NCBI GenBank assembly: GCA_947167445.1 | Contig: CAMVID010000008.1 | Span: 206-64,205 of the forward strand | Direction of reading: 5' to 3' | DNA length: 64,000 nucleotides | Source: an uncultured Lachnospiraceae bacterium | GTDB taxonomy: Bacteria; Bacillota; Clostridia; Lachnospirales; Lachnospiraceae | Shown here: positions 3,858 to 52,576 of the stretch, piece by piece | Numbering within the stretch: position 1 is the first letter of the stretch | Layout of the letters: each line of letters opens with the position of its first letter | Notes under the pieces: model-generated | Databases searched by the model: none | What the model was told of the DNA's origin: nothing | What the model saw: only the letters and a program-made list of their open reading frames with translations | Made by a program: the position numbers and the translations under genes

Positions 3858-3889
3858 ACCATAACTAGTATAGCATAGATATGACAGTT

Positions 3890-4288
3890 CTAGTAATGTT
3901 CTTTTACTTCGATGAGTACCCCAAGGTCCTTGGCTGTGTCAAAGTATTCGTAGGCTTCATAACCCTTCTCCTGCTTGAAGATGGATTCATAGCCTGCGGC
4001 CTTCATTGTAGCCTCATCATTTTCGAGAGGTCCGTCTGACAAGAAGCAGACGGAGTATATTGAGGTTCCGTGCTCCTTAAGCCAGGCTGCCCAGGGATCG
4101 TTATCCCCCAGGGGCTCGATGATTTCGAACCAGAAGTTGTCGCTGAACACGCTTTCAACTTTCATGGGTGTGTCTGTAATGGGGCGACCCTTGTAGGTGG
4201 TTAAGGGTGTTCTCACCATCTTGTGCTCCTCATTATCCTCGGGAGCCGTACCGGTGCCAAGGCTTATACCAATCTTGTCCATTGGCAT
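3890..4288 (-). CDS. VOC (glyoxalase/bleomycin-resistance fold) family protein
   Basis: 132-aa ORF. The C-terminal half reads like a VOC module (FWFEIIEPL ... GTSIYSVCF ... GVLIEVKEH). The 5' end overlaps the AraC ORF; the internal Met at 4219 is an alternative start. Confidence 0.5.
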   Translation of the reverse strand: MPMDKIGISLGTGTAPEDNEEHKMVRTPLTTYKGRPITDTPMKVESVFSDNFWFEIIEPLGDNDPWAAWLKEHGTSIYSVCFLSDGPLENDEATMKAAGYESIFKQEKGYEAYEYFDTAKDLGVLIEVKEHY

Positions 4289-5050: not shown

Positions 5051-5060
5051 GGAAATCCCT

Positions 5061-7052: not shown

Positions 7053-7119
7053 ATTCTTACCCCCATTTATTCTTTATGTGCAGTTTGGGGCCTGTCCCCA
7101 ACTGTCACATTTGTGTGGT

Positions 7120-8148: not shown

Positions 8149-8152
8149 TTCT

Positions 8153-9013: not shown

Positions 9014-9015
9014 AA

Positions 9016-10038
9016 TTAATCCTCATAAAAGTAGTCGGTGCCATATCTTGATGAGAGTAAATCATACATGACGATTGCGCTCATGGCTTCAACAACCACC
9101 TTTGCTCTATGTATAATGGCGGGATCGTGACGACCTTCTATCTGAAGTTCTCTGTTCTCTCCGCTCTTTAAATCTATGCTTTCCTGCTTCACGTAAACGG
9201 ACGGTGTGGGCTTTATTGCAAGCGAGAACTCAATGGGCATTCCATTTGTTATGCCACCGTTAATCCCACCGTTGTTGTTAGTAGTCGTAACAATCTTACC
9301 GTCTTCATTTCTGAAGGAATCGTTATACTCGCTTCCCTTTAACGCCACTCCGTCAAAGCCTATACCAAACTGCACTCCCTTAACTGCGGGGATACTGTAC
9401 ATTGCATGGGCAAGGACGCTTTCAACCGAGTCAAACCAGGGTTCCCCAACCCCTGCAGGCACTCCTTTTATCTGGGCTTCAAGGACGCCGCCAACACTGT
9501 TGCCTTCCGCTGCGGCTGCCTTAATTGCCGCTTCCATCTCTTCCCATGAGCCTGCTATTCCGGCAACGGATTTGATCTCGCAGGAGATTTCGATGCCTTT
9601 TTTCTTAAGAGCAGGCAAAACAACTGCTCCCGCAGCGACCAGGGCTGCGGTTATTCTTCCGCTGAAGTGCCCGCCGCCTCTGAAATCCTCAAAACCATGG
9701 TATTTAACGCTTGCGGTGTAATCCGCGTGTCCCGGCCTTGCAATTCGCTCAGCCTTCTCATAATCGGAACTTCTCTTTGCCACATTTGGAATCAGTATGG
9801 TCAAAGGAGAACCTGTGGTTTTACCATTAAAGTATCCACTGACAATCTGAAATTCATCAGGCTCAACCCGGGAGGTTGAAATCACCCCTGCAGGTCTCCT
9901 TTTTGAAAGAAGCTCTCTTATGTAATTCTCATCCACCGTAAGCCCAGGTGCAAGTCCATCGAGAACTGCGCCGATGTATGGACCGTGGCTTTCTCCGAAG
10001 AGCGTTATCTGTAAGCTGTTTCCAAAGGTGTTTTTCAT
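9016..10038 (-). CDS. aroC: Chorismate synthase
   Basis: 340-aa ORF with signatures FGESHGPYIGAVLDGLAPG, RPGHADY and GGGHFSGR. Confidence 0.95.
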   Translation of the reverse strand: MKNTFGNSLQITLFGESHGPYIGAVLDGLAPGLTVDENYIRELLSKRRPAGVISTSRVEPDEFQIVSGYFNGKTTGSPLTILIPNVAKRSSDYEKAERIARPGHADYTASVKYHGFEDFRGGGHFSGRITAALVAAGAVVLPALKKKGIEISCEIKSVAGIAGSWEEMEAAIKAAAAEGNSVGGVLEAQIKGVPAGVGEPWFDSVESVLAHAMYSIPAVKGVQFGIGFDGVALKGSEYNDSFRNEDGKIVTTTNNNGGINGGITNGMPIEFSLAIKPTPSVYVKQESIDLKSGENRELQIEGRHDPAIIHRAKVVVEAMSAIVMYDLLSSRYGTDYFYED

Positions 10039-22515: not shown

Positions 22516-22777
22516 GTGTTTTCCCTCTTTCATATTGAATACCAATTTTTTAACTGTGCCGTTTGGGTGAAAAAACATTTCGTTTTTCATCACTCATCTT
22601 AAAAGACTTCTACGCAACTAAAAGTGGCTCAAATTTTTTAAAAAAATCTTGATTTTTTTTGAGAACCGCCGATATACAGTGTTTTACCTACTTTTGTCAT
22701 CTAACTACTCTCTATATATTAAGTGTCATTCTGGGACAAAATTCCTAAGCAAATCACAAAAAAATTTCAAAAAAAAT

Positions 22778-35111: not shown

Positions 35112-35822
35112 CTAGTTCATATCTATTACCGCAACCTTATCCACTGCAGAGTAAAGCAGTGCCTCTCCGGTGTTGGTGTAAAGGACATCTAGGCCCAGAT
35201 TGAGAAGGAATCCGGATTTTCCCTCGGCGGTAACCAAAACATCGTTGATTCCCACCACGTTGTCCTCGTCTGTTTCACTGTTGTGATATTCAACACTTCC
35301 CGCATATCTCACCTTCACATATGAAAGTGCGGGAAGGTCTGTTGTAACATTACCGATACGCAGTTTGACAGGCTCAAGGAAGATGTACAAATCCGAGCCG
35401 TCGTAGAGAAAGCCGCCATAGCTCTGGGCCTTCTTCTCTCCCGAAGTAAAAGTAACCCTGCCGGTGTCCTCGGTAACGGTGGTAAAATAGTTGATTCTCT
35501 TAACGTCAGTTCCCTCGGAAGGAACCATGAGAAGCATGTTGCAGGGAAGAGATAGTTTGGTCTCCCCCTTGTACAAAAACGGAGTTTCCGCAACGGGCCT
35601 GCCTTCTGCGGTAACACTTCCTCCGTTCTCTCTGAAAACCGTGTCTGCGGAGTAATTTAATTCGGTGCCCTCAAAGAACTGATGAAGCTCCGTATTAGGC
35701 CTGAATGCAGCCAAACCGTCAACATACCAGAACACAAAAAGGGCCAGCACAAGTAATAAAACTCCTGCCACACCTATTTCTATCATGGTCACTGCTTTCA
35801 TTGGTTTAGATCTGTATATCAT
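35112..35822 (-). CDS. N-anchored membrane protein (236 aa) consisting only of TM + the shared juxtamembrane module
   Basis: TM segment MIEIGVAGVLLLVLALFVFWYV. The C-terminal motif VLVTAEGKSGFLLNLGLDVLYTNTGEALLYSAVDKVAVID resembles segments in the 2120-aa and 3717-aa proteins. It has a 4-nt overlap with the upstream gene. Confidence 0.6.
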   Translation of the reverse strand: MIYRSKPMKAVTMIEIGVAGVLLLVLALFVFWYVDGLAAFRPNTELHQFFEGTELNYSADTVFRENGGSVTAEGRPVAETPFLYKGETKLSLPCNMLLMVPSEGTDVKRINYFTTVTEDTGRVTFTSGEKKAQSYGGFLYDGSDLYIFLEPVKLRIGNVTTDLPALSYVKVRYAGSVEYHNSETDEDNVVGINDVLVTAEGKSGFLLNLGLDVLYTNTGEALLYSAVDKVAVIDMN

Positions 35823-36360
35823 GCGTTAACCTTCCCTCCGTCATCACGGCTTTCAATAATGTTGTAGACGCAACCCATAAGGTCATACAGCGCATAAAGC
35901 ACCAGAAAGATTGCCAAAAAGATAAGTGCAATCATAATCTTCACATCAAAAAGAACATTCTCAAGATATGAAATAAGGAATCCCGATACATATAAAAGTC
36001 CCATAATAAGCGCAGCATTGAACACGCTCACAAGCATTTCCTTAAGCCTTCTTCTGCACAGTCCATAGATGAGCACAAGGCTTCCGTACATAAAGATATG
36101 GACGGGGTAAACCTGGCCCTTGGCAATCAGTAAAGAAATAACCAGATAGAATTTAATCAGGCACATGGCAAGAAGCACCGAGTCCATCATCCTTGCTCCG
36201 TAGAAAAAACCGATTACTCTCAAATTTCCCTTTTGCCATGAAAACTTGCGGCAAAGGACCAAAAGCACAGCGAGCAAAACTACGGTACCCACGGCAGTAA
36301 CAATCATCATGGTCTTAAGGAGAATTATCTGATTGATTATTTTCCCCACTAAAGTTTCTG

Positions 36361-36364
<4 letters not shown>
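35819..36364 (-). CDS. Polytopic membrane protein (181 aa, about 5 TM helices), unknown family
   Basis: Hydrophobic throughout. Charged residues lie in a hydrophobic stretch (GFFYGARMMDSVLLAM). It has 4-nt overlaps with both neighbours. Confidence 0.6.
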
Positions 36365-38205
<1,841 letters not shown>

Positions 38206-38222: not shown

Positions 38223-39020
38223 TTAATACGCCCTCGTCTTCGTATAGTTATCCAAAACCTTGGCAAACTGCTTGTCTTTGTTCCGACGTCTCTCTTCCAT
38301 AAGCCTTATTTCATCCCTCTCATCAAGCTTATTTAAGGACTCGGTTGTTACATTCTGTCTTGATATATTCTCCGATGCATAGCTTGCCGCTGCTGCAATT
38401 TCCATGGAGTATTTCACGTACAGGACAACCATGTTCACAAGAAGATCATCCACATTCCCCTCGAACGAGAAGTCTTCTTTATAGTCATCCTCTTCATTGG
38501 CTTCACCCTTCGGAACCGGGTAAATCTGCTTGTCAACAAGCGCCACCTGTGAGGAATTGTAGTAATGGTTATAGACTATTGAAATCTTTGAATATCGGCG
38601 TTCCCTTATGGCTTCCTCGAGAAGCCCCATTACCTTGCCGTTATCCTCGTCGTACTCTTCCCTTGTTTGAAAAAGCAGAAGCTTCTCCTTATCGGAAGGT
38701 TTGATTTTTCTTCCGATTACTATCTGCTTCACATCCCTCTCTGCATCTCCTGCCTGATCTCCCAATGTCTTTTTGACCAGAGCATTCAAGTTGCTGCAAA
38801 AGCCCATATCGGAACCTATATAGATGTTCAGTTCCGGCTTTGTGGGGTCAACCTTGTGCATCTTATAATCCAGGGAAATGTTTCTGTTGTTGACTATGTT
38901 GTCAATCATCCTAGTAAGAATCTGCTCCATGGCTGTGTACTTCTTGGACTTGTTTCTTGACTTGTCCACCCTTAAAAGGGAGTGGAAGTTCATAACCTTA
39001 ACGACGCTTCTTATACTCAT
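38223..39020 (-). CDS. F1 ATPase gamma-like subunit (divergent)
   Basis: 265-aa ORF with three eye-aligned blocks to canonical gamma. YIGSDMGFCSNLNALV matches ITSDRGLAGAYNSNV. ISIVYNHYYNSSQ matches LYMYYNHYVSAIQ. YASENISRQNVTTESLNKLDE matches [20 protein letters not shown]. It has an ATGA overlap with alpha. Confidence 0.7.
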   Translation of the reverse strand: MSIRSVVKVMNFHSLLRVDKSRNKSKKYTAMEQILTRMIDNIVNNRNISLDYKMHKVDPTKPELNIYIGSDMGFCSNLNALVKKTLGDQAGDAERDVKQIVIGRKIKPSDKEKLLLFQTREEYDEDNGKVMGLLEEAIRERRYSKISIVYNHYYNSSQVALVDKQIYPVPKGEANEEDDYKEDFSFEGNVDDLLVNMVVLYVKYSMEIAAAASYASENISRQNVTTESLNKLDERDEIRLMEERRRNKDKQFAKVLDNYTKTRAY

Positions 39021-40342
39021 ACAAAGTCTCCGACTACTTCCATGAAATCTTCTTTAATTTCTTCCGGCGTTCTGGGTGAAAACTTATATTGCAAAAGTCT
39101 CTCCTGAAGTCTCTCGCCCTCCTCGATGTTGGCCTGCATTTCAGGGCTCATTTCATCGATGTTGGCAAGCTGATAAACTTCCTTTGTTTCCAAATAGCTT
39201 AAGAACTTACGTCTTACCACTGCGCCAATCTTTTTCATGTTGGCTTCCTGTACGGCACCGCCCAAACGTGATACGGAAAGACCGTAGTTGATGGCGGGCT
39301 TTAAGCCCTTTTCAAAGTTCTTTCTTGAGAGAACCAACTGTCCGTCTGTAATGGAAATGATATTGGTTGAAATGTAATCCGTAATGTCTCCGCCTCTGGT
39401 TTCGACAATGGGAAGGATTGTGATAGAGCCTCCGTCCTTGTGCTGGCATCCCTTCTCAAGAAGTCTTGAATGGGTGTAGAAAATATCAGGGGGATAAGCA
39501 TCACGTCCCGGTATTTTACCTGCAAGAAGTGAAATCTCTCTGTGGATGTCTGCATGGGATTTCAGGTCATCTATTACCACCAGAACATCCTGGCCCTCCC
39601 GCATGTACATTTCCGCAATGGAAAGTCCCGCATAGGGAGTAAAGAACGATACCGGCGGCTCATCATCGTTGAATGCCGCAAGAATCAATGTATACTCCAT
39701 GGCGCCCTTCTTCATGAGATTGTCGTACAGCTCACGGATATTCTTCTTCGTTTTGTTGACTGCTACGTAGATACAGATAACGTTTCTGTCCTTCTGGTTG
39801 ACGATGGTATCGATGGCTATCTGGGTTTTACCCGTCTTTTTGTCACCGATAATCAACTGTCTCTGGCCGTATCCTATGGGGTAGATAAGGTCGATACCTG
39901 CGATTCCGGTGTAAAAAGGTCTCGAAACCTCACCTCTTTCCATGATTGGGATTGCGGGGGTCTCAATCATACAGGGGCGAAGGTTTTCAAACTTTTCGCC
40001 CACCAGTCTGTCTTCCCCGAAGATATCCACGATATGGCCGAGGGCGGCTTTGGAGTACATGGCACAGAAATCATACCCCGTAGTCACTACCTCGTCTCCA
40101 ACGTATATGGCGTCAATTCTCTGAAGAAGTGCAACCATTACAGAGTTTTTACCGATGGAGGTGACATATCCCACTGAGTGATTGGCAATAACAACCCTTT
40201 CGTAAAAACCAACCTGCTCAAGTCCGACCACCTCTAGAATGTAGTCTTTGACTTTTGAGACATAGCCAACCTCATAGATATTTTTCATGTCCTTCATGTT
40301 GCGTAATTTGGCGTTAACAAGATTTTCAATATATGTGCTCAT
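39017..40342 (-). CDS. F1 ATPase alpha-like subunit
   Basis: I moved the start to ATG 40340-40342 (SD GAGGAAG). Motifs are Walker A GDKKTGKT, VLVVIDDLKSHA, ITDGQLVL, and the arginine-finger context SVSRLGG. Confidence 0.9.
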   Translation of the reverse strand: MSTYIENLVNAKLRNMKDMKNIYEVGYVSKVKDYILEVVGLEQVGFYERVVIANHSVGYVTSIGKNSVMVALLQRIDAIYVGDEVVTTGYDFCAMYSKAALGHIVDIFGEDRLVGEKFENLRPCMIETPAIPIMERGEVSRPFYTGIAGIDLIYPIGYGQRQLIIGDKKTGKTQIAIDTIVNQKDRNVICIYVAVNKTKKNIRELYDNLMKKGAMEYTLILAAFNDDEPPVSFFTPYAGLSIAEMYMREGQDVLVVIDDLKSHADIHREISLLAGKIPGRDAYPPDIFYTHSRLLEKGCQHKDGGSITILPIVETRGGDITDYISTNIISITDGQLVLSRKNFEKGLKPAINYGLSVSRLGGAVQEANMKKIGAVVRRKFLSYLETKEVYQLANIDEMSPEMQANIEEGERLQERLLQYKFSPRTPEEIKEDFMEVVGDFV

Positions 40343-41141
40343 TCTTCTTCCTCGATTTGTAGATGCTGTAGTCATACAGTCTGCCCTGGTATACTATTCG
40401 AATACCCTCGCAGACATTCTTATCGAACATACAAACCACGTTGTCGGCAACGTTGTCGTAATTCTCGTCTTCTTCTCCAAGGTAAGCTTTCAGCTCAGGG
40501 GTCTGAATACTTACCGTCTGCTTAAGCCATGAAATAAAATCAAGGATGTCAAACTCTTCGATTTCATCCATGGGCTCAATGAACTCACCAAGAAGTGCCT
40601 TTTCCTTTTTCTTCAGCGAATCATATAAAACCTTTAACTGCTCGGTTTTCTCCAAAGTACAAAGGTCGTAGATTGCGTTGAAATTTAGAAGCTCCAGTAT
40701 GGATTTGGCTGCGTTGTAGCGCTCCAAATTGCCGTGGTAAGGAAACTTTTCAAGCACAGTCTTTATAATGGAGCTCTTATCCATAACAAGCAGGTTTTTG
40801 GCCGTTTTGTAATCGGCAAAGAACCCGTTGTCGATGTAATGAGATACAGGAATGTAAGCATCTCTTATTACGGGACGAGGCTTGTAGAATCTTGATACCT
40901 GCATGGCATTGTAGTCCTGCTTTAAAATCTTGATTCTTTGTTCCACCTCTTCCTTGGACTCTTTCAGTTCTTCCAGCTCATTCATTTTCTTTTTGAAGTC
41001 ACTGTCAAACTCCTTCAGTTTTGAAAGGAAGTAGACATTGACCTTCTTACTGGCATTCTCCGTGACAATCCTTAAGGAGGCCGTGACAAAGTAAATCATG
41101 ACCGCCATAATCACGAAAATCGCTATAAATACAGCTATCAT
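40326..41141 (-). CDS. b-like stator subunit with a possible delta/OSCP-like C-terminal domain
   Basis: 271-aa ORF with one N-terminal TM (IAVFIAIFVIMAVMIYFV), then a charged coiled coil. The globular C-terminus ends in DKNVCEGIRIVYQGRLYDYSI, reminiscent of the delta C-terminus (D.sliGG..v.vgd.viD.Sv). Confidence 0.55.
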   Translation of the reverse strand: MIAVFIAIFVIMAVMIYFVTASLRIVTENASKKVNVYFLSKLKEFDSDFKKKMNELEELKESKEEVEQRIKILKQDYNAMQVSRFYKPRPVIRDAYIPVSHYIDNGFFADYKTAKNLLVMDKSSIIKTVLEKFPYHGNLERYNAAKSILELLNFNAIYDLCTLEKTEQLKVLYDSLKKKEKALLGEFIEPMDEIEEFDILDFISWLKQTVSIQTPELKAYLGEEDENYDNVADNVVCMFDKNVCEGIRIVYQGRLYDYSIYKSRKKNEHIY

Positions 41142-41154: not shown

Positions 41155-41412
<258 letters not shown>

Positions 41413-41428: not shown

Positions 41429-43057
41429 TTAGTGTAATACTCCCGTAACTTCGGGAAGACTGCTCACAACATTCACGTTCTGATACGTTGCAGACTCAAA
41501 CTTCATTGTTAAAGGTTTATTCTCTGTTGTCTCAGAAATAGGTAATGTAAAACTCATGCTCTTGCTGTCTCCTCCGGCAGCGGCTGCTGCTCCGTCAACC
41601 TGCAAGGATGATCCCATTTTGTTTCCGTTAAAGTAAACGCCAACTGTCGCCCCCGACAGCTCATATCCGTTGTAAGACTTTACGGTATAGTTGACGGTTA
41701 CAAGAGTCTTTCCGTCTGTATCTTTGCTTGTTGAAATCTTATTAATCTCAATATATGCGATATCTGCTTTAGTGGTTACCTTGGCCACATCCTGATTAAC
41801 CGTGACAAGTTCTGTACTTCCGGTTGAATCCTTCTTATAAGCCTGATAGCCCATCTCCAGCTTGTAATTCTTGCCGGGTTCAAGGCCTGTTACCGTATAC
41901 CTGGTATCGGTCTTACTAAGATGTACGGTTTCCTTCAAAGGATTGCTGGCCGCAAGGTCATAGACATTCAAAAATACATCCACGTAATCGTTTGTAAGGT
42001 CGTTTACGAAGTATTCAACGTCAATGCTTGATACGGAAGCCGTTGCTTTCTTTAAGCTGATCCACTTGGTTGCAGAAATGGAAGCATCGCTTCCTTCGCC
42101 ACCTTGTCCGCCGTCTCCGCCATCGCCGCCGAGACCGCCGTTTCCGCCCTGGCCTCCGACACCGCCGGTACCGCCTGAACCTCCGGCGCCACCGTTTCCG
42201 CCAAGACCACCGTCACCGCCGAATCCGCCTGAACCTCCGGTGCCGCCTGCTCCGCCCGAGCCACCGGTACCGCCTTGTCCGCCGGTACCGCCGGCTCCTC
42301 CGTTACCACCCATGATGGTGATAACTTCGGGATTTTTGGCCATCAGCTGTGCATCAGGTTCTTCCACAATTCCCTCTGTGTACAAAAGAGGCCGTTTGGA
42401 ATAGAGATTGGTGCTTCCGATAATGTTCTTTAAGCTGACTACGTTTCCGTCTTTGGCCATAAGCTCACTGCTAACGTCAAAATAAAGTCCGTCGCTTTCA
42501 AGAACAATAGGTTCAATAACATTGACGTAGTAATCATCATTCATAATCATTGCTGAGCCGCTCTTATGAATGTTGATGGTTACATACCCGTCGGATGAAA
42601 GAGAACTGTCAGTGGAGTTAATGTCTCGCCCCGTCATTACATAAAGCCTGTCTCGAAGCTTATAAAGTGACGGTGTGTTCATGTCCTCCACAACGTTCAC
42701 ATCTTTTAGTTTGTCCACGGTACCATCCCCGTTGATTTTGTACGAATCCCCGTATATGGTCATGCTTGATGCTGTGGGATCGTAGATTACTGTGTTTTTA
42801 CCAAGGCAATACACATCATCGTCTGCGGTTTTCAGGTAATATTTGTTGTCCCATTTCTTCCTGACCGAGCCTTCATCTGTCATGTCCACATATTCGTTAT
42901 CCTCGGTATATACCGTGGAGCCGGGCGCCACGGGGTATGCTTCGTTTCGGTTTTTGACCACGAAGACAACCGCCGAAGAAAAAACCACCAGACCGGCCAC
43001 AAGCATAATACCCAGCGCATTAAAAGACATGGTGTTTTGCTTACTTAACTTTCTCAC
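41429..43057 (-). CDS. N-anchored envelope protein (542 aa): TM, juxtamembrane module, (GGX)24 repeat, FN3/Ig-like domains
   Basis: GTG start with GAGG upstream. TM segment FNALGIMLVAGLVVFSSAVVFVV. The repeat GGNGGAGGTGGQGG...GGQGGEG covers aa 250-322 (42092-42310). An FN3-like signature YTVTGLEPGKNYKLEM is present. Confidence 0.8.
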   Translation of the reverse strand: MRKLSKQNTMSFNALGIMLVAGLVVFSSAVVFVVKNRNEAYPVAPGSTVYTEDNEYVDMTDEGSVRKKWDNKYYLKTADDDVYCLGKNTVIYDPTASSMTIYGDSYKINGDGTVDKLKDVNVVEDMNTPSLYKLRDRLYVMTGRDINSTDSSLSSDGYVTINIHKSGSAMIMNDDYYVNVIEPIVLESDGLYFDVSSELMAKDGNVVSLKNIIGSTNLYSKRPLLYTEGIVEEPDAQLMAKNPEVITIMGGNGGAGGTGGQGGTGGSGGAGGTGGSGGFGGDGGLGGNGGAGGSGGTGGVGGQGGNGGLGGDGGDGGQGGEGSDASISATKWISLKKATASVSSIDVEYFVNDLTNDYVDVFLNVYDLAASNPLKETVHLSKTDTRYTVTGLEPGKNYKLEMGYQAYKKDSTGSTELVTVNQDVAKVTTKADIAYIEINKISTSKDTDGKTLVTVNYTVKSYNGYELSGATVGVYFNGNKMGSSLQVDGAAAAAGGDSKSMSFTLPISETTENKPLTMKFESATYQNVNVVSSLPEVTGVLH

Positions 43058-43075
43058 GTTTATTTCCTCACTTGT

Positions 43076-46000
43076 TTATTCACCTGTGGTCTGAACTGTT
43101 TCAGTCTTTACCCTGGTATCAAGGTCTCCCAAAAGTCCGCCTGTGCCGCTTCTATACTGAATCTTTACGTCATACCACTGATCCGAATCGATGGATGAGG
43201 AAGACCAGTCAAATGTCTTGGTAAATGATGAACTCTTCGCCTCATCCTCAGATACTTCAATTCCGCTCTCGGTTGTGGTGTAAACCATGGTTCCATTTGA
43301 GTTATATGCCGTAAGGACAATCTTTCTGACGTTAGCGAAGTTACTGAGGTTGTAGAATTCAATCTCCAATCTGTCCACCGTAGCGTCGGAACCAATCGAT
43401 GCCGTGGCTGCCGATCCTGTGCTTACGGTAGCTTCGCTGAATACCAGTACATCTCCTTCAGTCTCATCAAATCGTCCGTTGTTGTTAAGGTCTGCCTGAC
43501 CCTCCACTCTTACGATGTAATCACCGGGATCCACATCGTTAAAGGTAACGGTTTCGTACTCTGCTCCACCGGAGTTTGTAAGAACTACATTTTGTGAGCC
43601 CACAGCATTATCTGTATCTGTTCTCTTGTAGAGACTTACTGTGTACGTTCCGTCAAGGATTGCCTTTTGTGAATCCGTGCAAGTAACCGAAGCATTGATA
43701 TTATTCTCCGAAGGAGTAGCTGTCAGCCTGAAGTCAGGAAGTGTAAGACTTGTGGGTGTCTGCACAGGAAGGATGGTGAAGCCCAATTCTTCGTCGGGAT
43801 CACTGTCATCCACTGCCCAAACTCGAACGGTATATGTGCTCCCCAGATAGAATCTTCCTGTTCCGGGGTTCATTGTTGTGCTGAAGGGATTATTCTGATC
43901 CGCTCTCTGGCTGTAGTACTGATATCCGGGATCACCAAGTTTATCTATGGTTCCTTCTGCCACAACACTGCCGTTATCAATATCTGTTCCGCTTACAATC
44001 TTGTACTTGACCGTCATGCCGGTACCCTCATCACCGGGGATGCCAAATCCGAAGGATACTGTCTTATCATCGTAGGCATTGTATGAATAGCTGGGTCCGG
44101 TTACTCCGATATTTATGTATTTAAGTGTTTTAAATGTGTACTGAACATTAACTCTTTCTTTGTCAGGATCAATACTGTACAAAGGACGCTCATTTCCGGC
44201 GTTGTCGTATGTAAAGAACAAAACGCCGTAGTTGGTCTCGGTGGACAGCTTTCTGAGCCTCAAAGTAAAGTTATTGTTCGTAACCGTAATATAAGTCTGA
44301 TTCTTAAACTCTGTTGTGTCATAGTCAGGAGTTGAAGCATCTGTGCTTACCTCGAAGAATTCTCCTCTGTCGTCGGAATTCTTTTTAAGTTTTACGACTG
44401 TGTCAGCGCCGCTCTTCTGAATCAGCTTCGCATAGATTCTGTCGGTACTTACTCCGTGAAGAGACATCTCAAGGGTTGCGGACTTGGCACCTGCGGTAAT
44501 TCTTTCCTGTCTGATTGCTGCAACTACAGTACCCATGGTAATGTTAAGGGTCTTGTTGCTTGTGTCGGTTCCGTCATATATACCAAAGTCAAATGCGCTC
44601 TTTGCCAATTTCTCTGCAACGTAGTAGTTCTCTCCTATGTGAATACCGTTCTCATCGAAGGTAAATCCGCTTAAAGGTGCGGTTTCAAACTGGGAGTTTG
44701 AAACAAGAGCGTTGTAGTAATACCTCTGGTCCATGATGGCACTTGATCTGTTGCCGGGGTTGGATGTTACATTAAGTCCGCCGCCTGCAACATTTCCGGG
44801 AATTACCATGGAGCCCAATGTGGTAGCTCCAAGGCCATAGGTTGTCGTCCAGTTACTATCCTCTCTCTGTATATATTTTGTTGTTCCGTCACTGACGTTC
44901 ACTCTTCTTAAAGCAAACAGGTTCTCACGCTCGGTACTTGACTCGTAGAAGGTTCCCTTGTCGTAGTCATCCATAAGACCTTCGTAATCATCGAATCCCG
45001 AAGATTTTGTGGAATAATAGCCGTTTACGCTGACGCTTAAGTTTGTTCCAGGACTGAACTTGGCAGCAAGAGGTCCCTGATCAACATATGCGTATCCATA
45101 AGGAGTTGCACTTCCTGACAGTTCTCCTCTGTCAACCACGTATACAGGATCGTAAATAACACTGTCATTACCATCACTGAATACAACTCTAAATGCAGAG
45201 AACTTATCCAAATCCGTTCCCATGAACGTCAGTCTGTATCTGTAGTTACCTTCGTTTACAAGAGGTGCCACAGTTCCGTCAGAAAGTTTATCCGCTGCGT
45301 TATCATTTGTGGTCCATGTGAGACCCTTAAGATAAATATTGTTTGCGGATATGGTCTGAGTCTGGAAATGCTGAACCGGCTTGGATGTAATATATTTTGT
45401 TGCTTCCGAAGCGGCTGACAAGGTCTTGTAGGGAATTCCAACACTATAGTAAATTCCGTCTGTACCAAGTCCGTCAATTGTCAGTGCCTTAAAGTCGTTA
45501 TTGTTTCTGTATCCGTCGGTATCATCCATTCCCGGTACATTTACAGTTGATTTGGTTGTTGATGTAGCTACCCCGGCATATGTATTGGCCTTTGTAATTT
45601 CAAACGCCGCTTTGCCCGCATTGTCTGTAATGATTGCTTTATCCGGGTCAATAATTCTGTAATTCCAAATGTCTTTTCCGTTCTCTGAGGAGAGAGGATA
45701 TCTCTCAGCTACGGGTGTCTGCATGTCAAGGGATATTACAGCGGATCTGTACAAAGGAACAGGTGTACTTCCGTATGCGCAATCAGGGTAGAAATGATCG
45801 TTATCGGGATCGATACAAGGGGTGATTGTATGATCAGCCAATACCCTGTATGCGATGATATATCTCTTACCTCTGGTCAAAATATCTTGATCTTCTGCAC
45901 TGCTTCCGTCAGGCTTCTTCCAGGTCATTACATATGAGCCAACACTCTTTGTACCCTTGAAGTAAAGCTCTGTGTCACGAACGCCGTACTCCATACCATC

Positions 46001-49000
46001 TCTTGTATGTTCACCAACAAGAACCAGATTACACTTCACATCTGTTCCGTATGTGTAGGTTCCGTCAGGGTTTGCCGTAACAGTAGCTATACCTTCTGAA
46101 AAATCATCGGGTGCCTTAGGATAAATAAGCTGGTTGGATGCAATGTCATAATTATCATCAAGTTCATAGATGTAGTAATAAATCTTGTTTACATCCGCGT
46201 ATCCGTAATCTGCTCTGAATCGGAGTCCAACCACTGTGCTGCCGTCAATTCCGTCTTCCGAATAGCCTATAGCCGCTGCGGAATTGGGAAGAGCATCTAC
46301 AACAACCTGTCTGTTGGGATTGTTGGCCTGTACGTGTTTCTTTGAGATTCCGAATCTGATAACGTTCTCGCCTTCCTTGAAGGGAATTGTGTTACCACTT
46401 CCGCCGGTTCCGTCTGCAAGATTAAGGGTGTAGTCGTATGCTCCGATGACCTTAATCTTGAACTCTCCGCCTGAGAAAAGGGCGTTATCGTTGTTATCAA
46501 TACCAAAGTCTGAAGGAGTGATTTCAAATACCGATGTGTCACTTGCAGCTTCCGAATCTTTAATTGTAAGGCCCTTACTTTCTTCAGGCCCCGTAAGCTC
46601 TGCGTCAGGGTTGTATTCTGTCTTATCACGTCCAATGAATGCAGTGTCCTTGAAATAAGAGTCATGGGATCTTGTATCTCCGTCCGCAAGAACCGTTGCA
46701 TTACCAACGATTCTCTCAAGCCCCGAATCCTCCACATGAATAAGCTGTAGTTCCAGCCTTTCAAGTACGGATGCAGAATATTGAGCCTGTCCGATTTCAT
46801 CCGCGTCTTCCGAAAGAGATGTGACGTTAATGCTGTATCTGAAAGCAGATTGGGGATTGGCAAGTCTTCTTGCAGCCAAAGCTAAGGGCTTATGAGTCTT
46901 GGTATTAACTCTGGTGCCCGTAAAGTATGTGCTTGCTTCGGCACCAGTAATGTTTCCGTCCCCGTTTGTATCCTGGGGACCGCTTAATATCAATGTGTAA
47001 ACGGAATCCTGATGAAGCCCCTCTTTCTTGAAGGGAATGAGCCAGTAGTTTCCGTTAGACTTGATGATATCTCCCCATTCAGTTGTATAGTTCGTTTCGT
47101 AATTATCCTTGTACTTAAGTGTGTATGTATCCGCATACTCACCGGAAATGGCAAGTACAAGGGGATTGGTGCCTCCTATATGCTGAAGGACCGATGTGTT
47201 GTTCCAGTTACTTGATATATCTCCTGTACCATCTGTGATTTTGATGAATCCGGAAATTGTATCCGCACTCTGCTGATTCTCATCAATCAGAAGTTCAACC
47301 ATAAGATCCGTGTTAACCGCGCTTAAGTCAGATACGTTGGAGAACAGTGTTGATATCTCCATATCTTTCTCGTTATCGTTGAACATTACGGTTACGCGTG
47401 CTCTGTAGACATCCAAATCTCCCGAAGGAATGGAGAATGTATGCCCTGAAAGCTGAGTCAAATCCTTAGAGTATGTGGCAACAAGTTCATCCATTGACCC
47501 GGTCTGAAGAGCACTGGATATATCTGAATCCTTAAATAAATCGATTCGATAACTTGATATTCCGCAATCAGGATCCGCAATGGGATTAAGGTTTACCGTA
47601 ATGGTATGGTTCTTGTCATTGGAGGTGATGGTAGGTGTCATAAGTGCTACCGATCTCCTCTCTCCAAAAGTGGCGGTTGCGGTATAAATCTCGTAATCGT
47701 AAGGTGTTTCCTTAAGAGTCTTTAGCTCTACTTCGCTTCCGTCTGTGGGAATGAGTTCATTATTCACAACTACATTTCCAAGTTCCGCATAATAAGTTGT
47801 ATTGCTTTTTACATCAGTAAACGAGTTAGTTCTGCCTGAGGTACCGGGGGCAGGGTTTGTATCATTTACTACAAATGTTGCTCCTGTGCTGGTGCAATTA
47901 AACAAAGCGATAGTCTGCTTTTGGCCGTTGTCATCGTAGTAGAAGAATCTTACGTTATAACTGTCTACCTGACCGGTTACTTTGGTTACGGCCGATATCT
48001 CAGTGTCCGTAACATAATCCTTTGTGATTCCTATTCCCAAAGGTTCCGTTCTGAAAATCTTCTGGAAAAGGATTCCGGTTTGAGGGCTTTCTCCCTTGCC
48101 CGGTAAGTATTCGCCTTCAACAACAAGAACGTACTCTCTGTCTGCATTTAATCCACTGAAGGTCAATGCTCCACTGCCACTTTCTATCTTGGCACCAAGT
48201 TCCAGCTGCTTGTTTTCCTTGTCTGTGCCTGCTACCAGTTGCATGGTTTCTCTGTCATAAACCTTTACCTTGGCACTTCCGGCTGTAAGGGTATTGTCCG
48301 GATCTTCCATGTTGAAATTCATGGTGGCACTTCCGGGAGTTACCGAATAGCTTCTGTTATTATCGCCTGAATTCACCCTGATCTCAGGTCTTGAATAAAG
48401 GTCAACAGATTGAAGCTGGCTTGCACTTGCTGCAGTATCTGCATCTTTGCCGGCTATACCTTCGGCACCGTCATAGCCCATGATTCCGGTGTCACCTTCA
48501 ACACCGTCTTTGCCGAGTCCGCCGGTGGAACCCATGGCGCCTTCAGAGCCCGCTTCTCCTTCTCCGCCTTCTTCGCCTTCCTTTCCTTCCTCTCCGGCTT
48601 CACCCTGCTCGCCGTCGGTTCCGTCGGTACCGTTTACACCGTCCTTACCGTTTATGACGTTGAATGTAGGAATAGTAGGGCCGTCTTCTATGTTTTCATC
48701 TATGTCGATGTAGCTGTCATCATCAATTGTCATGTCGTCAAGAGAAAGAACCGCTTCTCCGTCTACCATGAAATTCTTGCCAACAAGGTTAAGCTCTGCA
48801 CCGCCCCTTGTGACAAGTGTGCTATCTGCGGCAACTGTCTGATATGTTCCTGACTGATGGGAAATTCGAACGATACCGTTGTCAACGTAAGTAAGCTGAA
48901 CATAATCAGAGAACTGAACATCATCGCCGGAAGTTTTAAGCGTTACATCAGGGGATAAAAGCATGTAGTCCCGGTCTGAAATCTTCCAGATGAATTCTGT

Positions 49001-49438
49001 TATGTTCATGGCTTCGCCGCGGCTGCTCATTTCGTAGGCGCCGCCGTTTTTTACAAGAACGGTGTTCTTTGAAAGGCTGTAATAGCCATAATTAGATTCC
49101 GTTATTTCGGAAACGTCCATAATAACGCCCTTTTTGAAGGATCCAAGGGAGCCGTCATTATAGTGAATAAAATGGTCCGAATCAATTAATTCATTCGTTC
49201 CTGTTGCGTCTTTAAAGGAAATCTGAGTACCATACTTCTCTTTATACTTGGTGCCCTGAGTGAAGTAATACTCCATATTAACGTTGTCGGTAACAAACTC
49301 TTCATCCGATGGATCGAGAATAAAACCGTCAGCGACAAAAGTTCTGGTGTTTCTGGCATTATTGACCGCAGATAGCACAGCAAGCCCCGCACCCAAAGCC
49401 AATACTGCAGCCAAAATAAACATAATACCCTTCTTCAT
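43076..49438 (-). CDS. Large (2120 aa) N-anchored fibre-like protein: TM/signal, juxtamembrane module, collagen-like (G-X-Y)23, long array of Ig/FN3-like domains
   Basis: SD GGAG 7 nt before the ATG. The N-terminus is MKKGIMFILAAVLALGAGLAVLSAV. An uninterrupted G-X-Y run, GKDGVNGTDGTDGEQGEAG...GAEGIAGKD, covers aa 264-332 (48443-48649). There is no C-terminal anchor. Confidence 0.85.
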   Translation of the reverse strand: MKKGIMFILAAVLALGAGLAVLSAVNNARNTRTFVADGFILDPSDEEFVTDNVNMEYYFTQGTKYKEKYGTQISFKDATGTNELIDSDHFIHYNDGSLGSFKKGVIMDVSEITESNYGYYSLSKNTVLVKNGGAYEMSSRGEAMNITEFIWKISDRDYMLLSPDVTLKTSGDDVQFSDYVQLTYVDNGIVRISHQSGTYQTVAADSTLVTRGGAELNLVGKNFMVDGEAVLSLDDMTIDDDSYIDIDENIEDGPTIPTFNVINGKDGVNGTDGTDGEQGEAGEEGKEGEEGGEGEAGSEGAMGSTGGLGKDGVEGDTGIMGYDGAEGIAGKDADTAASASQLQSVDLYSRPEIRVNSGDNNRSYSVTPGSATMNFNMEDPDNTLTAGSAKVKVYDRETMQLVAGTDKENKQLELGAKIESGSGALTFSGLNADREYVLVVEGEYLPGKGESPQTGILFQKIFRTEPLGIGITKDYVTDTEISAVTKVTGQVDSYNVRFFYYDDNGQKQTIALFNCTSTGATFVVNDTNPAPGTSGRTNSFTDVKSNTTYYAELGNVVVNNELIPTDGSEVELKTLKETPYDYEIYTATATFGERRSVALMTPTITSNDKNHTITVNLNPIADPDCGISSYRIDLFKDSDISSALQTGSMDELVATYSKDLTQLSGHTFSIPSGDLDVYRARVTVMFNDNEKDMEISTLFSNVSDLSAVNTDLMVELLIDENQQSADTISGFIKITDGTGDISSNWNNTSVLQHIGGTNPLVLAISGEYADTYTLKYKDNYETNYTTEWGDIIKSNGNYWLIPFKKEGLHQDSVYTLILSGPQDTNGDGNITGAEASTYFTGTRVNTKTHKPLALAARRLANPQSAFRYSINVTSLSEDADEIGQAQYSASVLERLELQLIHVEDSGLERIVGNATVLADGDTRSHDSYFKDTAFIGRDKTEYNPDAELTGPEESKGLTIKDSEAASDTSVFEITPSDFGIDNNDNALFSGGEFKIKVIGAYDYTLNLADGTGGSGNTIPFKEGENVIRFGISKKHVQANNPNRQVVVDALPNSAAAIGYSEDGIDGSTVVGLRFRADYGYADVNKIYYYIYELDDNYDIASNQLIYPKAPDDFSEGIATVTANPDGTYTYGTDVKCNLVLVGEHTRDGMEYGVRDTELYFKGTKSVGSYVMTWKKPDGSSAEDQDILTRGKRYIIAYRVLADHTITPCIDPDNDHFYPDCAYGSTPVPLYRSAVISLDMQTPVAERYPLSSENGKDIWNYRIIDPDKAIITDNAGKAAFEITKANTYAGVATSTTKSTVNVPGMDDTDGYRNNNDFKALTIDGLGTDGIYYSVGIPYKTLSAASEATKYITSKPVQHFQTQTISANNIYLKGLTWTTNDNAADKLSDGTVAPLVNEGNYRYRLTFMGTDLDKFSAFRVVFSDGNDSVIYDPVYVVDRGELSGSATPYGYAYVDQGPLAAKFSPGTNLSVSVNGYYSTKSSGFDDYEGLMDDYDKGTFYESSTERENLFALRRVNVSDGTTKYIQREDSNWTTTYGLGATTLGSMVIPGNVAGGGLNVTSNPGNRSSAIMDQRYYYNALVSNSQFETAPLSGFTFDENGIHIGENYYVAEKLAKSAFDFGIYDGTDTSNKTLNITMGTVVAAIRQERITAGAKSATLEMSLHGVSTDRIYAKLIQKSGADTVVKLKKNSDDRGEFFEVSTDASTPDYDTTEFKNQTYITVTNNNFTLRLRKLSTETNYGVLFFTYDNAGNERPLYSIDPDKERVNVQYTFKTLKYINIGVTGPSYSYNAYDDKTVSFGFGIPGDEGTGMTVKYKIVSGTDIDNGSVVAEGTIDKLGDPGYQYYSQRADQNNPFSTTMNPGTGRFYLGSTYTVRVWAVDDSDPDEELGFTILPVQTPTSLTLPDFRLTATPSENNINASVTCTDSQKAILDGTYTVSLYKRTDTDNAVGSQNVVLTNSGGAEYETVTFNDVDPGDYIVRVEGQADLNNNGRFDETEGDVLVFSEATVSTGSAATASIGSDATVDRLEIEFYNLSNFANVRKIVLTAYNSNGTMVYTTTESGIEVSEDEAKSSSFTKTFDWSSSSIDSDQWYDVKIQYRSGTGGLLGDLDTRVKTETVQTTGE

Positions 49439-49609: not shown

Positions 49610-49812
49610 AAAGACCGTAAAGAGATGAATTTGCAACTCCCCATAAAAAGTTATTAATTATCTCTCAAAACTCCCACTTTATTTCATCAGATTTTTGCAT
49701 CAAAAAAAAGTGAATTTTTTTACATTTTAGGGGGACAAATTTTACTTAATCGTTTAAGTTCTGTAATAATTTTGTAATATTTATTCAAAACAGGGTAATT
49801 TTTTAAAAAAAT

Positions 49813-49833
49813 GACAGGGACATGGTCCCTGTC
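49813..49833 (-). terminator. Terminator separating the upstream GGDEF operon from the giant operon
   Basis: 9-bp perfect stem GACAGGGAC-ATG-GTCCCTGTC, followed on the minus strand by AUUUUUUU. Confidence 0.85.
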
Positions 49834-49847
49834 AAATAATTTTATAA

Positions 49848-50507
49848 CTATTCCCCTATACCGAAAATGCAAATCAGCTTGGATCGGCCCTTATTGATGC
49901 TGCCAAGCATAACTTCAACAGAAGGAAATGGCCCCATTGGTGCGCCGTTTCCGTACACATTGTGGGCAATAAGGCCCGACATTTCCCTGTTAACATTAAT
50001 GGTGTGGATCTGCCTTTTGATATTGTCCTTATCGTTATAGATGGTCAAAATAAAGGTGTCATATAAGGGTTCAATCCGCCTGATCTCCGATTCATCCCGG
50101 GCAAAATCACACTTATACCCGTTCTTTGAAAAGAAGTCCAGCAGGGCCTTGGGAGACGTCCCAAATCGCCCGCCGAAAATCATTCCGTCCTTCTCAAATT
50201 CAGAAATCAGTTTTGGCAACGAGAAGCCTGAAATACCACCGAGCCTTACAAGTGCATTATAAGCCGCGATTATCTCGCATCCCGAAAAAGCCAGATTCTT
50301 TTTCCCAAAAGAAACGTCCTTCAAGTCCTTCTGATTCTCAATGAACCCTTCAATCCCGTTAGCGGCAAAGAACTCCTCATTCTTCTTGTAATGATCCTTT
50401 ATTTTTCTCTTGCTTATATGGGCTATCCTTCTTAAGAATTCCATAAAGCCCAAAACTGTCTTATTACTTACGTGTCTTGGAATAAAAGCCAAGAACCCCT
50501 TAAACAT
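49848..50507 (-). CDS. Hypothetical protein, possibly a papain-like (C39-like) cysteine peptidase fold
   Basis: 219-aa ORF. A candidate Cys (NLAFSGCEIIAAYNALVRLGG) and a candidate His (QIHTINVN ... LIAHNVYGNG) are present. This is weak, eye-only evidence. Confidence 0.3.
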   Translation of the reverse strand: MFKGFLAFIPRHVSNKTVLGFMEFLRRIAHISKRKIKDHYKKNEEFFAANGIEGFIENQKDLKDVSFGKKNLAFSGCEIIAAYNALVRLGGISGFSLPKLISEFEKDGMIFGGRFGTSPKALLDFFSKNGYKCDFARDESEIRRIEPLYDTFILTIYNDKDNIKRQIHTINVNREMSGLIAHNVYGNGAPMGPFPSVEVMLGSINKGRSKLICIFGIGE

Positions 50508-50509
50508 AT

Positions 50510-52576
50510 TTACTGCTCCGTCTCATAAAATGAATACTTGTTTGTACCGCTTCCCTTGCAGGTGTACATGGCGGTATCCGCAAGTCTATATATTTCCTCA
50601 TAATTTCTTGCTTCTTCGCTGTCACAAAGAATCGCACCTACACTGACGCTTACCTTCAGATCATCTATGCCGTCAATGCTGATATCATTTATAAACTCAA
50701 ACAAACGCTCAAGACATTTTATACCGACTTTCATATCTGAGATATCTGCTCCGAAAACTGCAAACTCATCGCCGCCGATACGGGCCAGGATATCCTTTCG
50801 TCTGAATGCCTTCTTTAAGCATCCTGCTATGCCTATAAGTACCTTATCACCAATGGGATGTCCGTAGTTATCATTGATATGTTTAAAGTCATTTATATCA
50901 ATGATGCAGAACATTCCGTCAACATTCTTCTTGATGAACTGTTCTATTCTCTTTTGTCCGCTGTCTCTGTTAAGTAATCCCGTAAGGCTGTCTGTTTCGG
51001 AGAGGATTACAAGTTTTTGCTCCATCTCCTTGTTGGATGTAATATCAGCCAAAGAGGTAATGATAACTGAGTTTCTGTTGGAGAGAACCGTCAGCTTTGA
51101 GTCGGCCTTAATATATGTGCTTCTGCCGCCTATATGATAAACCGGGTACTCATAGGAGATTTCATCCCCTTCCTCCTTGAGTTTTCTAATTTTCTCCCTT
51201 ATGATCTTGGCTGAGTCCTTAAGCACATCCGCCACCACATCCGGAAAGATATCGTTCATCATAATGTTCAAAGGCATATCAAAGATATCTGAGGCTGCCT
51301 CATTACATATGATGATACGGTTATCCATATCCGTAACTATTACTCCGCCGGATTGCATATGCAGCATTTCCGCATAAATCTCGTTCTGATTCTCCAGAGC
51401 CTCCTGAAGAGCCTTTCTGTATTCCAGCTCTTTCCTCTCAAGATTTCTGATATCCCTTTTTCTCTTAAGCTCCTGTCTCTCTCTGGCATCAACATTCTTG
51501 ACGCCTACCATAACCGTACTTTGATTCAGGTCCTTCTGAGACTTAACAAACTTCGTCTCGTAGTACAGAATTGCACCGCCGAGAACAATTCGATAAACAA
51601 TGGTAAACTTCCCGTTTTCCTCAAGTTCCCTCACAACATTTTCTCTTGTAAGGTTCTCCTCCATGTAGCTGACGTCATCACCGTAAATTGCCTTCTTAAT
51701 CATTTCGCCGCAATCCGCGAAGAAATCATCTCCCTCGGTCTTTAACTGCAGCATTTCATAGAACTTGGTGTTACTGAAGGACTTATAGGTATTGTTTTCC
51801 ATGTTGACCCAGAAAATAATGTCATATTCATCAGACAGGGCATTGATAACCATGATTCTTGCTTCATTTTCTCTCTGATGTTCAAGGTATACTTCATTCT
51901 CTGTCTCTATGGAAATGTTATAAATAACAACTGCGACACCGCATATCATAATTGCCACTGCGTAGAAAGGAAGCATCGGCAAAACAAACTGGATAACAGC
52001 TCCCAATAAAAGGAGAACCGTTGAAGCTATCACGACCAGGCTTCGCATTTTCTCAAATGCCTTTGTCTCTTTTCTGTAGTGGTTTATGGTATTAAGAATC
52101 ACAAAGATATAATAAAATACATAAACCAGGACCAGGCCAATGGTGTACAGGTTATATTTCACCGAGCCGTCGGGATTAAACTCAAAGAAATAGCTTGTGG
52201 ATATATTGATGGCTATTACCTGGTATCCGATGAGGGCCGGAACGCCGTCAACGATGTAAAGTTTCCTGTCTCTGTTTTGCATTATCATAAACAGGTGGGC
52301 CGAGGCATATTCGTACCACATAAACTCTACCAGTATTCCGAAGCAAAGACTAGCGTAGAACACTGTCCTTTTGGCATCGTAGAGCATATTGTTTATTGCG
52401 TAAACAGAAAAGCCCCACACACCGTCAAACAGTGTGTAGAGCAAAGAAACGCATAAAAATCCCGCAAAAAATCTGATGTTCAGATTCTTTCTTCTTATTC
52501 TGATAACCCTGAAGAGTACCGGAATAAGTACGAGTATTACCATGGCTGAAGTGATGATGTAAGTACGGCTTGTCAT
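50510..52576 (-). CDS. Membrane-bound diguanylate cyclase (multi-TM sensor, PAS-like, GGDEF)
   Basis: 688-aa ORF with an N-terminal polytopic region. The GGDEF domain shows TGLLNRDSG ... DINDFKHINDNYGHPIGD ... RIGGDEFAV. Confidence 0.85.
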   Translation of the reverse strand: MTSRTYIITSAMVILVLIPVLFRVIRIRRKNLNIRFFAGFLCVSLLYTLFDGVWGFSVYAINNMLYDAKRTVFYASLCFGILVEFMWYEYASAHLFMIMQNRDRKLYIVDGVPALIGYQVIAINISTSYFFEFNPDGSVKYNLYTIGLVLVYVFYYIFVILNTINHYRKETKAFEKMRSLVVIASTVLLLLGAVIQFVLPMLPFYAVAIMICGVAVVIYNISIETENEVYLEHQRENEARIMVINALSDEYDIIFWVNMENNTYKSFSNTKFYEMLQLKTEGDDFFADCGEMIKKAIYGDDVSYMEENLTRENVVRELEENGKFTIVYRIVLGGAILYYETKFVKSQKDLNQSTVMVGVKNVDARERQELKRKRDIRNLERKELEYRKALQEALENQNEIYAEMLHMQSGGVIVTDMDNRIIICNEAASDIFDMPLNIMMNDIFPDVVADVLKDSAKIIREKIRKLKEEGDEISYEYPVYHIGGRSTYIKADSKLTVLSNRNSVIITSLADITSNKEMEQKLVILSETDSLTGLLNRDSGQKRIEQFIKKNVDGMFCIIDINDFKHINDNYGHPIGDKVLIGIAGCLKKAFRRKDILARIGGDEFAVFGADISDMKVGIKCLERLFEFINDISIDGIDDLKVSVSVGAILCDSEEARNYEEIYRLADTAMYTCKGSGTNKYSFYETEQ

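Follow-up and report, generated by a model that had tools for sequence, protein, structure and literature searches.

A 64,000-nt stretch of DNA from an uncultured Lachnospiraceae bacterium (contig CAMVID010000008.1), hereafter the window, encodes on its reverse strand two predicted surface proteins of 2120 and 542 amino acids (aa), each carrying a long run of glycine-first triplets between a membrane-proximal module and a set of outer domains. The run is of the collagen type (G-X-Y) in the larger protein and of the form G-G-X in the smaller one. The two genes are on the same strand with the 2120-aa gene first, lie 18 nt apart with no strong terminator seen between them, and belong to the same operon, which continues with homologues of ATP synthase subunits. 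The lengths of the two tracts change together among homologous loci, which bears on how the proteins may assemble. The features of the two genes are the following.

43076 to 49438, reverse strand: 2120-aa protein (open reading frame and translation), with an N-terminal hydrophobic anchor or signal, a beta module of ~230 aa, (GXY)23 and ~1790 aa of extracellular domains
48650 to 49438, reverse strand: anchor and juxtamembrane beta module of the 2120-aa protein, aligned by hhalign to the modules of the 542-aa and 236-aa protein families
48443 to 48649, reverse strand: (G-X-Y)23 tract, residues 264-332 of the 2120-aa protein, from the translation
41429 to 43057, reverse strand: 542-aa protein, with a transmembrane (TM) helix at residues 6-36, a beta module at 40-208, the GGX tract and two FN3-like domains at 332-541
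42092 to 42310, reverse strand: (G-G-X)24 tract, residues 250-322 of the 542-aa protein, with a closing GSD, from the translation

Both tracts stand where a preliminary description of this DNA, made from the sequence alone, had placed them. The GXY run extends without breaks over 23 triplets, from GKD GVN to GIA GKD, and the GGX run over 24, from GGN GGA to GGQ GGE G, or over 25 Gly-first triplets (to residue 324) when the terminal GSD is counted. By our own estimate, about 1e-22 occurrences of 23 in-frame glycines are expected in 2120 aa at ~8% Gly, which excludes a chance origin of the GXY run. The Pfam model Collagen (PF01391) passes marginally on the 2120-aa protein (28.4 bits for a cut-off of 27.2) and has no match on the 542-aa protein.

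A word-indexed protein search returned more than 200 homologues of the 542-aa protein, all unannotated and mostly from metagenome-assembled genomes (MAGs) of Lachnospiraceae. Among the 120 listed, all have a GGX tract, which starts at residue ~230-265 in nearly all of them. An exhaustive phmmer search through 1.84 billion representative clusters with its N-terminal module retrieved 286 at E <= 1e-3. We scanned species-representative genomes with an alignment of 11 sequences of this module and obtained 26 loci, including those of the cultured Kineothrix alysoides and Lachnospiraceae bacterium G11 (98% identical), to which look-ups of exact proteins added seven, for a total of 33 (L001-L033) from Lachnospiraceae, Oscillospiraceae and other Clostridia. 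A homologue of the GXY protein is present in all complete related loci.

Two of these loci show variants of the tract proteins themselves. In L032 (3700-9978), the GXY gene is split between a piece of 343-350 aa, with the anchor, the module and 25 triplets, and a piece of 1728 aa, either because of a frameshift or assembly error or because this is a genuine two-gene arrangement. In the distant L033 (10001-12112), the homologue of the GGX protein (P0090, 703 aa) includes a CHAP peptidoglycan-hydrolase domain (PF05257), which hints at a remodelling of the cell wall around the stalk.

The two proteins share their architecture. Both start with a hydrophobic helix, placed at residues 6-36 in the AlphaFold2 (AF2) model of the 542-aa protein. 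When alignments built from the homologous loci were compared profile to profile with hhalign, the juxtamembrane modules of the two families turned out to be homologous (95.8%, E 7e-9), and so did the domains that follow the tracts (94%, E 1.4e-7). Hence, the earlier remark that both tracts start right after a juxtamembrane module holds, and the module is of common descent. BLASTP found no similarity among the N-terminal modules of the 2120-, 542- and 3717-aa proteins (the latter encoded further down the operon), and the profile-profile comparison alone revealed the homology. The borders of the tracts are also alike. In the alignments of homologues, a strand P-x-F-N-V-V-N stands ahead of GXY and P-D-V-I-T-I-V ahead of GGX; both tracts end in G-x-D followed by Ala, and in each a hydrophobic or aromatic residue is conserved a few triplets before the C-terminal end. 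In the 2120-aa protein, the strand (PTFNVIN) and the closing G-x-D|A boundary are kept across homologues. Judged from these alignments, the two proteins are shown to be paralogues and their tracts equivalent segments with homologous boundaries. They are probably type-II membrane proteins made of an N-terminal anchor, a beta module, a Gly-triplet rod and an FN3-like domain.

The AF2 model of the 542-aa protein (82 sequences) gives the beta module (40-208) and the flanking domains a predicted local distance difference test (pLDDT) above 90, and leaves the tract (240-328) unstructured, with a pLDDT below 50 and no compact fold in this monomer model. Foldseek matches the C-terminal half of the model to FN3 pairs only and gives no assignment for the N-terminal beta module; Pfam and NCBIfam have no match for the protein.

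The preliminary description had suggested comparing repeat numbers in homologues, and this comparison gives the main result of our analysis. Allowing single non-Gly triplets inside otherwise continuous tracts, the GXY and GGX lengths co-vary in 28 homologous loci from 3-5 up to 68-70 triplets. The correlation over 23 pairs is r = 0.997, with a slope of 1.01 +/- 0.017 and an intercept of +1.1, and it persists when one takes only the pairs within 20-31 triplets (r = 0.98, slope 0.99). Six additional pairs in the middle range have 42/43, 37/39, 43/43, 25/25, 22/24 and 22/26 triplets. Uninterrupted counts already match in most loci (e.g., 20/21, 27/28, 31/32, 62/61, 68/69), and four seeming outliers have one non-Gly triplet (EKD, AKD, AKP or ADG) within a continuous tract. 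The GXY tracts of homologues have 20-68 triplets, with uninterrupted runs up to 68, and the GGX partner differs by 0-3 triplets (by 4 in a single pair) while the lengths span a 20-fold range.

This association persists after correction for phylogeny. Independent contrasts computed for the 28 loci on a neighbour-joining tree of the alpha and beta subunits give a slope of 0.97 and r = 0.998, and 21 of the 22 non-zero contrasts have the same sign. Close sisters change jointly: L025 has 62/62 triplets and L009 25/27, L021 has 68/70 and L027 42/43. The changes in length have therefore been repeated and parallel. In the locus L023, from an uncultured Clostridia MAG (2400-9101), both partners lack regular Gly tracts and have short Gly/Asn/Glu-rich linkers; this one lineage has lost both tracts together. 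The near one-for-one lengths support the early suggestion of a stalk close to the membrane, whose length is defined and which might be heteromeric.

The composition of the two tracts is very different. The GXY tract of the 2120-aa protein lacks Pro altogether, and its net charge is close to -15; those of homologues have 0-5 Pro each and net charges from -6 to -40, with Glu in 23% of the X positions and Asp in 28% of the Y positions. The GGX tracts are near neutral. Across 111 distinct GGX tracts (2859 triplets), the two Gly positions are occupied by Gly in 98.4% and 99.3% of the cases, while Gly and Pro hardly ever occur at X. Such strictness goes far beyond the need of a flexible linker, and beyond the one Gly per triplet of a collagen chain. 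The formation of triple helices by G-X-Y runs as long as these had been taken as established. It is known for collagens stabilised by Pro, Thr or charge pairs, and the usual stabilisers of bacterial collagens (Pro in X, pairs of Lys/Arg with Asp/Glu, glycosylated GXT) are lacking in these GXY tracts. Since the tracts are Pro-free and strongly acidic, the stability of a GXY homotrimer should not be assumed: with about -45 charges over 20 nm and none of the usual stabilisers, such a homotrimer looks unfavourable from its composition. Small neutral GGX chains mixed in would relieve the charge of GXY. The slope contributes to the same question. The rise per residue is 0.286 nm in collagen and 0.31 nm in a polyglycine II (PGII) helix. 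A slope of 1.0 therefore means that both chains rise by the same amount per residue; it fits one helix type and disfavours a collagen rod beside a free PGII helix, for which the slope would be about 0.92. An RTX-type Ca-binding beta-roll was considered for GGX and rejected, the period being strictly 3 and not 9.

The DNA of the GGX tract is indeed GC-rich (72% guanine plus cytosine, for 44% in the window), as first described, but its repeats are only degenerate, with a period of 27/54, 70-83% matches and a mixture of GGC, GGT and GGA codons. The long tracts of homologues also contain degenerate repeats at the DNA level (period 9/18/27) and have therefore grown by tandem duplication. The idea that the tract changes length by slippage or recombination thus stands over evolutionary time only; the length is the same in L001 and L002, which are relatives 98% identical. 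A metagenomic protein of 518 aa (P0002), 87% identical to the 542-aa protein, lacks 14 triplets and the strand before the tract; it may be a genuine variant in length or the product of a collapsed assembly.

Two more proteins of the operon have the juxtamembrane module, and one of them has a spacer of another kind in the position of the Gly tracts.

35112 to 35822, reverse strand: 236-aa protein, with a TM anchor and a juxtamembrane-type beta module only
23937 to 35090, reverse strand: 3717-aa giant protein, with an N-terminal module, an acidic linker and GLUG repeats; closes the cluster in complete loci
34173 to 34418, reverse strand: acidic Pro/Lys-rich linker, residues ~225-306 of the 3717-aa protein, same position as the Gly tracts

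The module of the 236-aa family aligns with the N-terminal modules of the 2120-aa (hhalign 90.6%, E 1.3e-6) and 3717-aa (79.6%) proteins. The giant protein has hydrophobic segments at its N- and C-terminus and is possibly anchored through both of them. The ~1500 aa in its centre contain repeated xVGG[IV]xGY units, which correspond to Pfam GLUG (PF07581, E 3.5e-9), although Pfam gave no match with the full-length protein, and its far C-terminal part is Gly/Glu/Thr-rich and of low complexity. The linker, acidic and rich in Pro, Lys and Thr, sits between the motifs Y..LL..LG and GVRPDxxRPDK, and its length follows the number of triplets in the tracts (n = 18, r = 0.98, Spearman 0.80), with 4.6 aa per triplet. 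It has 66-71 aa at 20-22 triplets, 80-110 aa at 23-30, 155 aa at 39 and 259 aa at 62, and the correlation is only of 0.78 in the 16 pairs below 35 triplets. Because this linker scales with both tracts, the height of the spacer is a parameter shared by three anchored proteins, and the match in height is close between the Gly rods and loose in the flexible linker. Downstream of the cluster (18511-22593, reverse strand), there is a gene for a 1360-aa Ala/Lys/Glu-rich protein, probably a coiled coil, that starts like a signal peptide and ends in a TM anchor.

The genes of the two tract proteins, of the 236-aa protein and of the giant protein are part of a conserved cluster of 11, in the order: GXY protein, GGX protein, c-like, b-like, alpha, gamma, beta and epsilon-like proteins, a protein with 4-5 TM segments, the anchor-plus-module protein and the giant GLUG-repeat protein. 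The order is identical in every one of the 33 loci long enough to show it. The genes downstream of the GGX gene are all on the reverse strand and are spaced by 13-21 nt or overlap. The other features of the cluster are the following.

41155 to 41412, reverse strand: c-subunit-like protein, 85 aa (Pfam ATP-synt_C, 7e-9)
40326 to 41141, reverse strand: b-like protein, 271 aa, with an N-terminal TM segment, a coiled coil and an unassigned C-terminal domain; position conserved
39017 to 40375, reverse strand: F1 alpha-like subunit, 452 aa (Pfam ATP-synt_ab, 1e-71)
38223 to 39020, reverse strand: F1 gamma-like subunit, 265 aa (Pfam ATP-synt, 2e-23)
36626 to 38005, reverse strand: F1 beta-like subunit, 459 aa (Pfam ATP-synt_ab, 1.5e-63)
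36361 to 36651, reverse strand: protein in the epsilon position, 96 aa, called from position and size, with no family match
35819 to 36364, reverse strand: polytopic membrane protein, 181 aa, with 4-5 predicted TM segments
49739 to 49834, reverse strand: terminator-like hairpin of the upstream gene (49812-49834) and promoter-like site (49767-49739), both consensus matches only

The ATPase encoded by this cluster diverges from the described types. The beta-like subunit has an intact Walker A motif (GGAGVGKT). The alpha-like subunit scores below the cut-off of two NCBIfam atpA models (426.3 bits for 554, 382.1 for 484.45) and the beta-like one below that of atpD (443.7 for 462.85). Both also fall below the cut-offs for N-ATPase and for the mycoplasma models MSC_0618/MSC_0619 and MMOB1660/MMOB1670 (380 for 570, 296.8 for 520, 379.4 for 600 and 369.4 for 850), with about equal scores across the canonical, N-ATPase and mycoplasma F1-like models. 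The c-like subunit keeps the GxGxGxG pattern of helix 1, the RNPE loop and, at its C-terminus, a conserved FNP motif. Its helix 2 contains no Asp or Glu in any of the 33 aligned homologues; hence, the c-ring is unable to bind H+ or Na+ as canonical c-rings do. Neither Pfam nor NCBIfam detected an a or delta subunit in the cluster, and they have no match for the 271-, 181-, 236- and 219-aa proteins. Sequence-profile searches against the PDB returned weak coiled-coil matches only for the b-like protein and nothing for the 181-aa membrane protein, which for this reason cannot be called an analogue of the a subunit. The gene in the epsilon position directly follows beta in 30 loci.

Upstream of the 2120-aa gene, the hairpin and the promoter-like site separate the cluster from the genes just ahead of it, for a PAS-GGDEF diguanylate cyclase and for the 219-aa protein (49848-52576, reverse strand), which are kept only in the closest relatives, L001 and L002. 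Rfam found no riboswitch (including for cyclic di-GMP) or other RNA element over the window, so there is no sign of control by cyclic di-GMP despite the upstream GGDEF gene. Three loci deserve a mention for their gene content or origin. The cluster of L029, on a contig labelled Coriobacteriales, stops after the gene in the epsilon position and is followed by unrelated genes; L031 has a gene for a ParA/MinD-type ATPase inserted after gamma; and L010, on a contig labelled Thermoguttaceae (Planctomycetota), has a cluster that hardly differs from the one in a Roseburia MAG (L011) and is probably a mislabelled or contaminated assembly.

We infer, with moderate confidence, that the GXY and GGX chains form an in-register hetero-oligomeric stalk, of the collagen or polyproline II (PPII) type, which sets the height of an ATPase-associated surface apparatus. 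The two proteins would assemble side by side and in parallel into this stalk, with a length of about 20 nm in this strain (23 triplets at 0.286 nm per residue), and thereby fix the distance between the membrane-proximal modules and the distal domains of the 11-gene apparatus. The giant protein would attain the same height through its flexible acidic linker. Such a shared in-register assembly is favoured by the strictness of Gly in GGX, by the acidity of GXY facing a neutral GGX, and by the slope of 1.0. The stoichiometry could be that of a heterotrimer or, through the two Gly faces of GGX, of a larger bundle. At the same rise, 20-28 triplets correspond to 17-24 nm, and thin Firmicute walls have a comparable thickness. 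The most economical reading of the spacers would thus be that they span the wall and carry the outer domains across it. The F1-like ATPase, placed on an ion-blind c-ring, may supply mechanical work rather than make ATP.

A number of observations weigh against this stalk. Matching lengths are likewise expected for two separate rods bridging the same layers, and since the giant protein matches the height with no Gly helix, a shared distance constraint can exist independently of co-folding. The single-triplet interruptions of partner chains are, by eye, not obviously aligned. The near-invariance of both Gly positions of GGX suggests extra packing contacts and not a simple heterotrimer. The N-terminal helix of the 2120-aa protein is possibly a cleavable signal peptide instead of an anchor. 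Finally, among the distant representatives checked, 72 of 121 have low-complexity linkers rich in Asn, Ser and Thr at the position of the tract, so a rigid rod is not essential to the system and would be the clade-specific form of a more general spacer.

The main competitor of the shared stalk is a pair of independent homo-oligomeric rods, a GXY collagen-like homotrimer and a GGX homotrimer or PGII bundle, that bridge the same layers or wall. It has precedents, since known bacterial collagen-like proteins such as Scl1/2 and BclA are homotrimers, and a common constraint on height would alone produce correlated lengths, as the scaling of the non-Gly linker of the giant protein illustrates. We nonetheless find it rather unlikely: a match within 0-3 triplets (4 once) with a slope of 1.0 is much tighter than what the flexible linker achieves (r = 0.78 below 35 triplets), each homotrimer of the Pro-free GXY chain would accumulate about -45 charges, and the homologous tract boundaries and flanking domains suit a side-by-side pairing. 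One could go further and deny any regular helix, taking both tracts for flexible Gly-rich entropic tethers of which only the contour length counts. The low AF2 confidence for the GGX tract fits this, and so do the disordered linkers of the giant protein and, at the same place, of the distant relatives. Yet, a tether requires neither periodicity nor a length match to within a few triplets, and here Gly recurs with a strict period of 3 (98-99% over 2859 triplets) with X almost never Gly or Pro, GXY runs reach 68 unbroken triplets, and the ends of the tracts are conserved. This makes the explanation improbable.

Still less probable is that GGX folds on itself into a compact PGII sandwich of a function unrelated to the GXY tract. 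Its composition resembles that of the PGII-bundle proteins, but the tract has no turn-forming breaks, AF2 finds no compact fold with 82 sequences, and a self-folded domain gives no reason for tracking the length of a partner one for one. The least credible explanation is that the tract is slippage-prone, hypervariable DNA serving phase or antigenic variation, and that the similarity of lengths in this genome is a coincidence. The GC-rich, repetitive DNA, the variation of lengths between species and the 14 triplets missing in P0002 are what such a mechanism would leave. Against it, the degenerate repeats use a mixture of Gly codons, lengths are equal in relatives 98% identical, and the co-variation, including in independent contrasts, excludes a coincidence. 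A broader proposal, which we consider unlikely, is that the cluster encodes a new Gram-positive surface motor. The F1-like ATPase would turn or cyclically strain the ion-blind c-ring, the GXY/GGX pair would serve as a thin hetero-oligomeric shaft of the PPII/collagen type through the peptidoglycan, and the giant surface proteins would be moved or remodelled for motility, control of adhesion or cleaning of the surface, with the length of the shaft co-tuned in three proteins to the thickness of the envelope.

If the shared stalk exists, it would provide a natural bacterial case of an acidic GXY chain and a GGX chain kept at equal length by selection, and a model for hetero-oligomeric PPII/collagen assembly that dispenses with proline. 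The operon is conserved in common gut and rumen Clostridia, and the cultured strains Lachnospiraceae bacterium G11 and Kineothrix alysoides have it. It couples an ATPase derived from ATP synthase, a c-ring free of carboxylates and three stalked surface proteins. Our search of the literature found no description of this cluster, and the 11-gene ATPase-associated surface apparatus has apparently not been described before.

How does it compare with known systems? The 2120-aa protein has in common with Scl1/Scl2 of Streptococcus, BclA of Bacillus and other PF01391 proteins at least 20 unbroken G-X-Y triplets, a surface location and a rod-like spacer between globular domains. In Scl1/Scl2 and BclA, which are homotrimers, stability comes from Pro, from charge pairs or from glycosylated Thr, whereas the GXY tract described here is Pro-free, strongly acidic and paired with a GGX paralogue of co-varying length. 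In addition, the protein has an N-terminal TM anchor beside an ATPase operon in the place of an LPXTG motif or of the basal layer of an exosporium. The GGX tract shares with PGII bundles the two Gly per triplet, a pattern with which PPII-type helices can pack through Gly faces. These bundles, which include the snow-flea antifreeze protein and the adhesin gp38 of phage S16, and of which a sandwich variant was proposed for PE_PGRS proteins, are made of short antiparallel helices joined by turns in one chain. In contrast, the GGX tract is continuous over 63-210 residues, follows a membrane anchor and has no turns, and AF2 shows no compact fold.

The ATPase genes share with canonical F1Fo ATP synthases and N-ATPases the order c-b-alpha-gamma-beta-epsilon, the Walker A motif in beta and the RNPE loop. 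They differ from them in that no a or delta subunit was detected, the carboxylate of the c-like subunit is absent and the equivalog cut-offs are missed. The only described parallels that we found are the F1-like X0 ATPases of wall-less mycoplasmas, reported to have no equivalent in other bacteria, of which Type 2 is the gliding motor of M. mobile and Type 3 is needed for antibody cleavage by MIB-MIP (PMC3369863, PMC12994834). Their clusters, which occur in Mollicutes, comprise seven genes, among them one for a 12-TM protein but none for a c or b subunit (PMC3369863, PMC12994834). As in the present cluster, an extra set of alpha-, beta-, gamma- and epsilon-like subunits is encoded with membrane and surface proteins, and both sets were apparently repurposed from ATP synthesis. 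The cluster described here retains c- and b-like subunits in the canonical order and lacks a 12-TM protein; it occurs in Clostridia, which have a wall, and includes three stalked surface proteins. The cluster thus misses defining features of both the bacterial collagens and the mycoplasma F1-like X0 ATPases, while resembling the mycoplasma system in its logic.

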